A DNA stretch of 52,948 nucleotides from Thermoproteota archaeon. GTDB lineage: Archaea > Thermoproteota > EX4484-205 > JAAOZP01. The DNA is taken from NCBI GenBank assembly GCA_038850115.1, contig JAWCMB010000005.1, forward strand, positions 1 to 52,948, in the 5' to 3' direction. Both the position numbers and the translations under genes were made by a program. The notes below the pieces were generated by a model. It saw only the letters and a list, made by a program, of their open reading frames with translations. It had not been told where the DNA came from and did not search any database. Shown one piece after another: positions 23,093 to 23,263 of this stretch. Each line of letters opens with the position of its first letter. Position 1 is the stretch's first letter.

Positions 23093-23205
23093 TAGCCCGG
23101 GAGAGATTCGAACTCTCGTCAAGGGGTTTCTCCGCAAGTGCTAAACTGCACCAAAGCCCCCCATGTTTGCCGTTACAATCAGCGCCTTTTTGGCTCCACC
23201 GGGCT
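23093..23205 (-). tRNA. tRNA-Gln(TTG) with introns at 10/11 (23178..23195) and 37/38 (23128..23150)
   Basis: A1-U72 acceptor AGCCCGG/CCGGGCT typical of archaeal tRNA-Gln; both inserts are bounded by BHB motifs; anticodon arm GGGGG-CTTTGGA-CCCCT after splicing. Confidence 0.88.
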
Positions 23206-23263
23206 TCCCGGGCTTGTTGAAAATCTGCTTTTGGGGATTTAATAACTTTTTACCTGTAGGGAA

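Follow-up and report, generated by a model that had tools for sequence, protein, structure and literature searches.

The window analysed here, a stretch of 52,948 nucleotides (nt) that forms contig C5 (JAWCMB010000005.1) of a 1.96-Mb hot-spring archaeal assembly, carries on its minus strand (23205..23093) a tRNA-Gln(UUG) gene made up of three exons and two introns of 18 nt and 23 nt. The first intron interrupts the tRNA between positions 10 and 11 (10/11), and the gene is preceded by a short leader that repeats the 5′ strand of its own acceptor stem, termed the decoy below. The nucleotides C5-G7 serve both in the central helix of the bulge-helix-bulge (BHB) splice motif of this intron and in the G+C-rich acceptor stem, and the splice motif and the acceptor stem are therefore mutually exclusive. 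Taken as a whole, the explanation that the decoy enables splicing of the 10/11 intron by holding the 3′ acceptor strand is likely to be correct. The decoy is conserved, it varies in ways that preserve its pairing, it co-occurs with acceptor-proximal introns and it has a marked predicted thermodynamic effect on the splice motif.

In the proposed mechanism, the 7-bp G+C-rich stem would win in any transcript whose 3′ strand had nothing else to pair with, and the 5′ splice site would never be presented. The primary transcript would begin at the 6-7-nt decoy, which repeats the 5′ acceptor strand, and the pairing of the decoy with the 3′ acceptor strand would create a pseudo-acceptor stem, freeing the real 5′ strand for the BHB and making the swap of helices nearly energy-neutral. 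The cut 10-nt 5′ exon, which in the BHB conformer would be unpaired with the rest of the tRNA, would be tethered by the decoy until ligation. With the intron gone the true strand would displace the decoy by intramolecular exchange, the native stem and the D-arm would form, and RNase P would remove the leader last, rendering the swap irreversible.

Exon 1 (23196..23205; tRNA positions 1-10, AGCCCGGUGG) contains A1, which pairs with U72, together with U8 and G10, and is followed by the 10/11 intron (23178..23195, AGCCAAAAAGGCGCUGAU), which has a relaxed BHB of the HBh′ type. Exon 2 (23151..23177; positions 11-37) comprises the D-arm and the 5′ half of the anticodon arm with the anticodon UUG, and the second intron (23128..23150) lies at the canonical position 37/38 with a full hBHBh′ motif, where Rfam places a 26-nt insertion. 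Exon 3 (23093..23127; positions 38-73) ends in the 3′ acceptor strand CCGGGCU and the discriminator A, a stretch that is identical or near-identical among relatives. Removal of both introns gives a 72-nt RNA that is called as tRNA-Gln(UUG) by ARAGORN, and the A1-U72 pair and the acceptor stem AGCCCGG/CCGGGCU are common to all relatives found. When the window was scanned, the genomic tRNA-Gln gene was missed both by ARAGORN and by Rfam at the gathering threshold, the other tRNAs numbering four with ARAGORN and five with Rfam; at an E-value threshold Rfam gave 23.3 bits for tRNA-Gln with a false acceptor strand built from the intron bases GGCGCUG. Fifteen genomes of the genus retain the split gene for their UUG isoacceptor, which argues that it is probably functional. 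Gene models with the first copy as the true 5′ end, with a 9-nt intron or with one large intron were tried and rejected: U8 and G10 are lost, A1 of the first copy is often G or U, and a BHB is impossible.

Upstream of exon 1, the decoy AGCCCGG (23208..23214) repeats tRNA positions 1-7 and is complementary to CCGGGCU, with the spacer GA (23206..23207) between it and tRNA +1. The leader AGCCCGGG can form 8 bp with CCCGGGCU if the T-stem pair G49-C65 is given up, and in the window's genus the spacer G and A can lengthen the decoy helix to 9 bp, invading the T-stem. The 18-nt intron, its central helix using C5-U8, the leader copy and the 8-bp pairing are thus all present in the sequence as the initial annotation had described them, with correct coordinates, and the TATA-like box it placed near 23239..23246 is found as TTATTAAA at 23238..23245, adjoining an A-rich element AAAAAG (23246..23251) that resembles a B recognition element. 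Among the ~40 tRNA genes of the window's genome (G000), only tRNA-Gln has two copies of its own 5′ strand, and judged from the sequences the duplication exceeds chance.

The position of the promoter fits a transcript that begins with the decoy. The TATA-like box starts 31 nt before the decoy (23 nt separate the two) and 40 nt before tRNA +1, and the archaeal promoter geometry, in which the TATA box starts ~30-31 nt upstream of the start site, predicts transcription from 23214..23215. The GAAAA/AAAAA-plus-TATA arrangement is found upstream of most tRNA genes in the window's genome, and in 20 of 27 other tRNA genes the distance from the start of the TATA box to the mature 5′ end is 29-35 nt (mode 32), from which it follows that ordinary tRNA leaders there would be only a few nt long. 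For the ~27 ordinary tRNAs of this genome, a TATA box ~32 nt before the mature 5′ end implies leaders of ~1-3 nt. A TATA-like hexamer lies 26-34 nt before the decoy core in 72/102 public genes with a 10/11 intron; when the distance is taken to tRNA +1 instead, the figure drops to 4/102. Going by this geometry, the decoy is most likely the extreme 5′ end of the primary transcript, which would start at the decoy or 1 nt before it.

The central helix of the first intron pairs CGGU of the exon with GCUG of the intron under the BHB rule (C5-G16i, G6.U15i, G7-C14i, U8.G13i), with a 5′ bulge of G9, G10 and A, and an inner helix GCC/GGC closed by an AAAAA loop. Only C4-G12 could pair in an outer helix, C3 and U13 being unable to do so; the strict hBHBh′ form is therefore absent and the motif belongs to the relaxed HBh′ class. 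The central helix is kept despite changes in more than 100 orthologues, the intron side being GCCG, ACCG or GCUG. In the second intron C32-U35 pair with GGAG of the intron between bulges G36 G37 U and A A A38, with the anticodon stem as outer helix and GCAG/UUGC as inner helix, so that the motif has the canonical hBHBh′ form.

Nearest-neighbour folding, in which the central-helix probability is the mean over its four pairs, predicts that the decoy pairs with positions 66-72 with a probability of 0.98-0.99. With the leader present, the predicted probability of the central helix in the window gene reaches 0.066 at 37°C and 0.24 at 65°C, compared with 0.0000 and 0.0005 without it, and in seven further orthologues of the order it is 0.03-0.57 compared with at most 0.002; shuffled leaders of the order orthologues were mostly without that effect. 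Across 101 distinct public genes the median is 0.40 with the leader versus 0.0006 without it. The predicted leader-driven increase is 100- to 1000-fold. For the family of genes with the leader GUAGCUCG and a 4-nt trailer the predicted probability is 0.17 with the leader versus 0.0007 without it, falling to ~0.016 when the trailer is left out, and the weaker decoy of this family would therefore need the trailer pairs. In a gene with its intron at 15/16 the effect of the leader is small, the predicted helix probability being 0.002 without it and 0.04 with it. Folding with and without the leader, which the initial annotation had put forward as a check, thus came out in the predicted direction in the window gene, the order orthologues and the public genes alike.

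Within the order that includes the window's genome, all 15 tRNA-Gln(UUG) genes found in the window's genus have the 10/11 intron, as do all 8 UUG or CUG genes of a second family, and each of these genes (23/23) has [A/G/U]GCCCGG 1-4 nt upstream, the base preceding GCCCGG being variable. The spacer between decoy and tRNA varies (GA, GAA, AU, A, AAU or AAAU) and the upstream sequence is unrelated between the families, with the decoy kept throughout. The pattern GCCCG-N2-8-AGCCCGGT matches 24/26 genomes of the order versus one match for the reversed control. Ten CUG genes of the genus, whose introns lie elsewhere in the D-arm, lack both the 10/11 intron and an exact decoy.

Beyond the order, a pattern search of a 300-genome sample of the phylum recovered seven more tRNA-Gln genes with a 10/11 intron from five genomes and three families. 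Six of the seven have decoys, the leaders including AGCCCGGG (11-nt spacer), AGCCCGG (8 nt), AGCCCGG (3 nt) and GCCUGG (1 nt), and one gene carries only AGCCGGC. A scan of public data with one genome per prokaryote species gave at least 120 stretches, and among the matches listed nearly all are real tRNA-Gln genes. The carriers belong to Nitrososphaerales (Nitrososphaera and Nitrosocosmicus, including a cultured strain), Nitrosopumilaceae, Bathyarchaeia and Brockarchaeota. Position 10/11, which the initial annotation had thought very unusual, is accordingly common in tRNA-Gln of Nitrososphaeria, Bathyarchaeia and Brockarchaeota among these at least 120 stretches.

Leader pairing was counted for the 73 verified genes among the first 80 public loci, taking a 6-mer within 25 nt upstream, with windows 30 nt further upstream of the same genes as control. 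The leader 6-mer pairs with the 3′ acceptor strand at 6/6 positions in 52 genes, 5/6 in 19 and 4/6 in 2, compared with 6/6 in none and 5/6 in 2 of the control windows. The apparent exceptions L127, L159 and L104 do carry decoys, either directly abutting the tRNA (AGCCCGG-U) or further upstream, and spacers outside the order range from 1 to 22 nt. tRNA-Gln with an uninterrupted 5′ part is present in 202/301 sampled genomes, with ~300 such genes outside the order, and the loose motif GYYYGG occurs within 13 nt upstream in only 11 such genomes outside the order, where chance would give ~2.5% per gene. By this count decoys are at about chance level in tRNA-Gln that lacks a 5′-proximal intron. The co-occurrence of leader copy and 10/11 intron, which the initial annotation had suggested testing across genomes, holds in 23/23 genes of the order and, at 5/6 or 6/6 pairs, in 71/73 public genes. 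Counting all groups together, the association is nearly universal and covers more than 120 genes from several classes of Archaea. The intron is almost never found without the decoy and the decoy is sometimes found without the intron, as expected if the decoy is a precondition that can outlive the intron.

The variants of the decoy identify its probable partner. Among public genes the core is GCCCGG in 45, GCUCGU in 13, GCUCGG in 4, GCUCGA in 3, GUCCGG in 2 and GCUCGC in 2, with GCUUGG and GCCCGU also present, and the substitutions comprise 26 of C to U, by which a G.U pair with G68-G70 is kept, versus one of C to A. In Nitrososphaeraceae tRNA-Gln(CUG) genes (L064-L181) the conserved leader GUAGCUCG can also pair with A73 and the first base of the trailer; this position-74 pair is G-C in 32 genes and A-U in 3 (L108, L158 and L180), with no mixed case among the GUAGCUCG and AUAGCUCG leaders. 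When 54 distinct rows of decoy and 3′ end were compared (the tRNA-Ala rows among them being analogues, not homologues), the six core pairs were formed in 46-54 of the 54, counts that are inflated by the choice of the best-pairing register for the decoy. Sixteen cells had changed on both sides, a number reached by 0/500 shuffles, and slid registers pair far less. These patterns strongly suggest that the partner of the decoy is the 3′ acceptor strand and that variation preserves that pairing.

A second tRNA points the same way. A tRNA-Ala gene at L122 (6094-6199, plus strand), met by chance, has a 34-nt intron at 9/10 whose central helix pairs C4-C5-G6-G7 with UCGG, and 10 nt upstream is the leader GGGCCGU. 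A pattern search of 251 genomes of Nitrososphaerales found four tRNA-Ala genes with a 9/10 intron, all from metagenome-assembled genomes (L122, L183, L184 and L185). Three of the genes are related and have GGGCCG[U/C], and the fourth (L183), with an unrelated intron sequence, has the leader GGAUCG, in which the changes of G3 to A and C4 to U both still pair with the 3′ strand UCGGUCC. As the tRNA-Ala decoys match their own acceptor, the decoy follows the identity of the tRNA it precedes. Together with the co-occurrence, the variants, the folding predictions and the promoter, tRNA-Ala gives strong comparative and thermodynamic support to the proposal of the initial annotation that the leader frees the BHB by holding the 3′ strand.

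A number of observations weigh against this explanation, in addition to the choice of register noted above. Many of the genes counted are related and the gene counts overstate the number of independent events, and two genes with a 10/11 intron have poor decoys, L128 with a degenerate match and that of G057 (L055). The BHB conformer of the window gene is not the minimum-energy structure, its helix probability being 0.07-0.24. With the first intron removed the decoy helix is still preferred in the window's genus, at -35.0 versus -29.3 kcal/mol for the native fold at 37°C and -18.5 versus -14.0 kcal/mol at 65°C; in the GUAGCUCG family the median predicted probability of the native stem after splicing is ~0.95 once the trailer is removed and 0.14 with the trailer. 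Since the model prefers the decoy after splicing, a return to the native stem would have to rest on the tertiary fold, on 3′ trimming, or on capture by RNase P or another enzyme.

Decoys also occur where there is no 10/11 intron, and these likewise tell against the explanation. Intronless UUG genes keep GGCCCGGGA in two genomes, G021 (L034) and G024 (L032), an outcome that the initial annotation had named as one that would count against its proposal. The decoy is kept beside a 15/16 intron in G018 (L022) and G020 (L030), and outside the order an exact AGCCCGG-AC accompanies an intron in the 3′ side of the D-arm (G111, L057). The UUG gene of G019 (L021), by comparison, has no D-arm intron and a decayed copy, GCCCGAAA, and because of this intron-free orthologue the decoys without a 10/11 intron may be relics, or else a sign of a wider role. 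The CUG genes L037, L039, L042 and L043, which have no 10/11 intron, have the leaders GCCCCGGC and CUCCGGC directly upstream; these could still form 5 bp with the 3′ acceptor strand and might represent decoys that are weak or have decayed.

The RNA data add a further point on the same side, as two hot-spring metatranscriptome contig sets (X14 and X15) contain no splice joints and only the unspliced form. This is the gene of a close relative (6 differences) at a word depth of 35-43, with one contig stopping exactly at the tRNA 3′ end (23093), and it may represent precursor RNA, read-through or DNA carry-over. In a raw-read run, 12% of the data yielded 0 reads, and the Nitrosocosmicus agrestis locus, that of the cultured strain, is represented only by low-depth contigs that span promoter and gene.

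Other explanations of the duplicated strand can be weighed against the same evidence. The pairing of the leader with the 3′ strand might have been selected for another purpose, such as shielding the precursor from RNase P, tRNase Z, the CCA-adding enzyme or the synthetase, or protecting the 3′ end, with the 10/11 intron merely tolerated. This would account for the decoys in the intronless genes L032 and L034 and in the genes whose intron uses no acceptor nucleotides (L022, L030 and L057), as well as for a decoy helix predicted to be stable after splicing, and in bacteria, pairing of the leader with the 3′ end is reported to inhibit RNase P (PMC9433436). Intron position is not, however, something that a general quality-control device would be expected to track, and decoys are at chance level in the ~300 tRNA-Gln genes without a 5′-proximal intron, are absent from the ~40 other tRNA genes of the window's genome, and appear on a different tRNA, tRNA-Ala, exactly where there is an intron at 9/10, making this an unlikely account. 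The duplication could also be a neutral scar, either of a tandem duplication of the first 9 nt or of the insertion of the intron or the integration of an element, functionless and co-inherited. The two copies are directly adjacent with a period of 9, integrating elements are known to leave tRNA 5′ fragments behind (PMC3293823), and a few ancestral events could underlie much of the co-occurrence. A scar is nonetheless very hard to reconcile with a 6-7-mer conserved between orders and classes even where the spacer, in length (1-22 nt) as in sequence, and the region upstream have diverged freely, with substitutions confined almost solely to those that keep the pairing with the 3′ strand, or with the decay of the copy in one lineage that has lost the intron (L021); the known integration scars are moreover tens of bases long.

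The two remaining alternatives assign the first copy a different role. As CCCGGG is palindromic, the upstream copy of the window gene could pair with the real 5′ strand in a 5-bp hairpin (CCGGG-AAG-CCCGG) that acts as a co-transcriptional folding guide. Such a hairpin would block the BHB helix, the predicted probability of pairing between decoy and 3′ strand is 0.98, and the one covarying pair at position 74 involves the trailer; furthermore the variants GCUCGU, GUAGCUCG and GGAUCG lose the hairpin and keep the pairing with the 3′ strand, GCUCGU and GGAUCG being unable to form it with the true 5′ strand at all, so that a guide of this kind is highly improbable. Alternatively, the first copy might be the true 5′ end of the tRNA, with the second copy lying within intervening sequence, as would suit the distance from promoter to first copy, which equals the normal distance from promoter to tRNA in this genome. 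It is scarcely credible given that GA, AU, A or AAAU follow the first copy in place of the conserved U8-N9-G10, that the first copy often starts with G or U and would break the A1-U72 pair of all these tRNA-Gln genes, that a 9-nt insert cannot form a BHB, and that ARAGORN accepts a tRNA from the second-copy model only.

If the decoy does enable splicing of the 10/11 intron, it may represent a general archaeal class, a wider proposal towards which we lean only cautiously. Introns whose splice motif takes up the 5′ acceptor strand (positions ~8/9 to 11/12) would depend on a leader copy that holds the 3′ strand, tethers the 5′ exon and forces splicing to precede RNase P, and a decoy arising by short tandem duplication would open such sites to intron gain. 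The decoy would then explain how introns persist where splice signal and acceptor stem exclude each other and would give a testable rule for where archaeal tRNA introns can persist. A further prediction is that the RNA itself enforces the sequence of maturation steps, with splicing coming ahead of 5′ trimming. The element is present in abundant and cultivable ammonia-oxidising archaea (Nitrososphaera and Nitrosocosmicus), making bench tests feasible. Genes of this kind are missed or mis-modelled by tRNA finders, such that genomes seem to lack tRNA-Gln, and a false acceptor strand may be drawn from the decoy or the intron.

The enzymes of the proposed pathway can be sought in the window's genome. 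Two matches to PF01974 (95.5 and 80.9 bits; G000:C3:35476-35733 and G000:C4:54643-54900) lie in open frames of 188 and 200 amino acids and mark paralogues of the splicing endonuclease EndA. The heterotetrameric type of EndA is reported to cut relaxed and non-canonical motifs (PMC5829648), and the two paralogues are consistent with a heterotetrameric (alpha-beta)2 enzyme of broad specificity in which the subunit roles are putative. An RNase P RNA gene is present, as in 23/26 genomes of the order. Many other tRNA genes of the window's genome carry introns, and none of them has an intron before position 13. Manual inspection of the window gene revealed no BHB that would allow the endonuclease to cut at -1/+1, and no complementarity between leader and trailer was seen.

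Intron content varies among close relatives, as seen from additional D-arm introns and missing 37/38 introns. An extra intron of 14-26 nt in the 3′ side of the D-arm is found in the tRNA-Gln(UUG) genes L004, L005, L008, L012, L013, L014, L016 and L048; several species of the window's genus carry it, some of them without the 37/38 intron. The 15/16 intron AGCCGAAAAGCGCGCAU of L022 and L030 is similar to the 10/11 intron AGCCAAAAAGGCGCUGAU of the window, a resemblance that suggests intron sliding or transposition. L030 (G020:C204), near a contig end, has a further insert at the boundary of T-stem and acceptor (GAGAGUUCGAAUCUCUCC[AAGCAGAGAGAGAAAAUCUCUCC]CGG), which includes an internal copy of AAUCUCUCC.

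Much of this gene belongs to a known class. The relaxed-BHB tRNA introns of Thermoproteales and Thaumarchaeota (PMC4090602, PMC4033280, PMC8450103) are likewise short, spliced by protein and placed outside 37/38, with a 4-bp central helix and 3-nt bulges, and they too come with several introns per gene, two EndA paralogues and genes missed by standard tRNA finders. These papers treat the intron and its motif; unlike the present case, they cover no leader element that replaces the 5′ acceptor strand. tRNAscan-SE 2.0 has an intron model specific to Thaumarchaeota and lengthens candidates by 60 nt so that introns close to the ends are included (PMC8450103), and the 10/11 intron itself is therefore probably already annotated. 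No published description of a leader copy of the acceptor strand was found in reviews and tool papers on non-canonical introns and on split or permuted leaders, or in a 2026 census of Asgard tRNA introns; the decoy is the new point, the intron class being already known.

Other systems share parts of the arrangement. In the split and permuted tRNA genes of Nanoarchaeum equitans, Caldivirga and Thermofilum (PMC3218864, PMC4090602) extra transcribed sequence also pairs to build an endonuclease substrate and is later removed; there the extra sequences pair with each other beside the splice sites and the endonuclease itself removes them, whereas the decoy pairs with mature positions 66-72, far from the splice sites, and would need RNase P for its removal. 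Leader pairing in bacterial pre-tRNAs (PMC9433436) similarly joins the 5′ leader to the 3′ end of the precursor and affects processing by slowing RNase P, but it extends the native stem, while the decoy competes with and excludes the native 5′ strand. The 5′ fragment of tRNA-Thr-F in Caldiarchaeum (PMC3293823) differs in being one of the long repeats split from the gene by an inserted element and in lying outside the tRNA transcript. The decoy, unlike such integration fragments, is 6-8 nt long, lies 1-22 nt upstream and falls inside the predicted transcript. In riboswitches and attenuators a single strand can pair with either of two others, the choice of helix being set by an event in another part of the RNA. 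The decoy resembles them in its mutually exclusive helices that share one strand, and differs in that the switch would be thrown by an irreversible processing step, the removal of the intron, rather than by the binding of a ligand or ribosome, and in having no expression platform.

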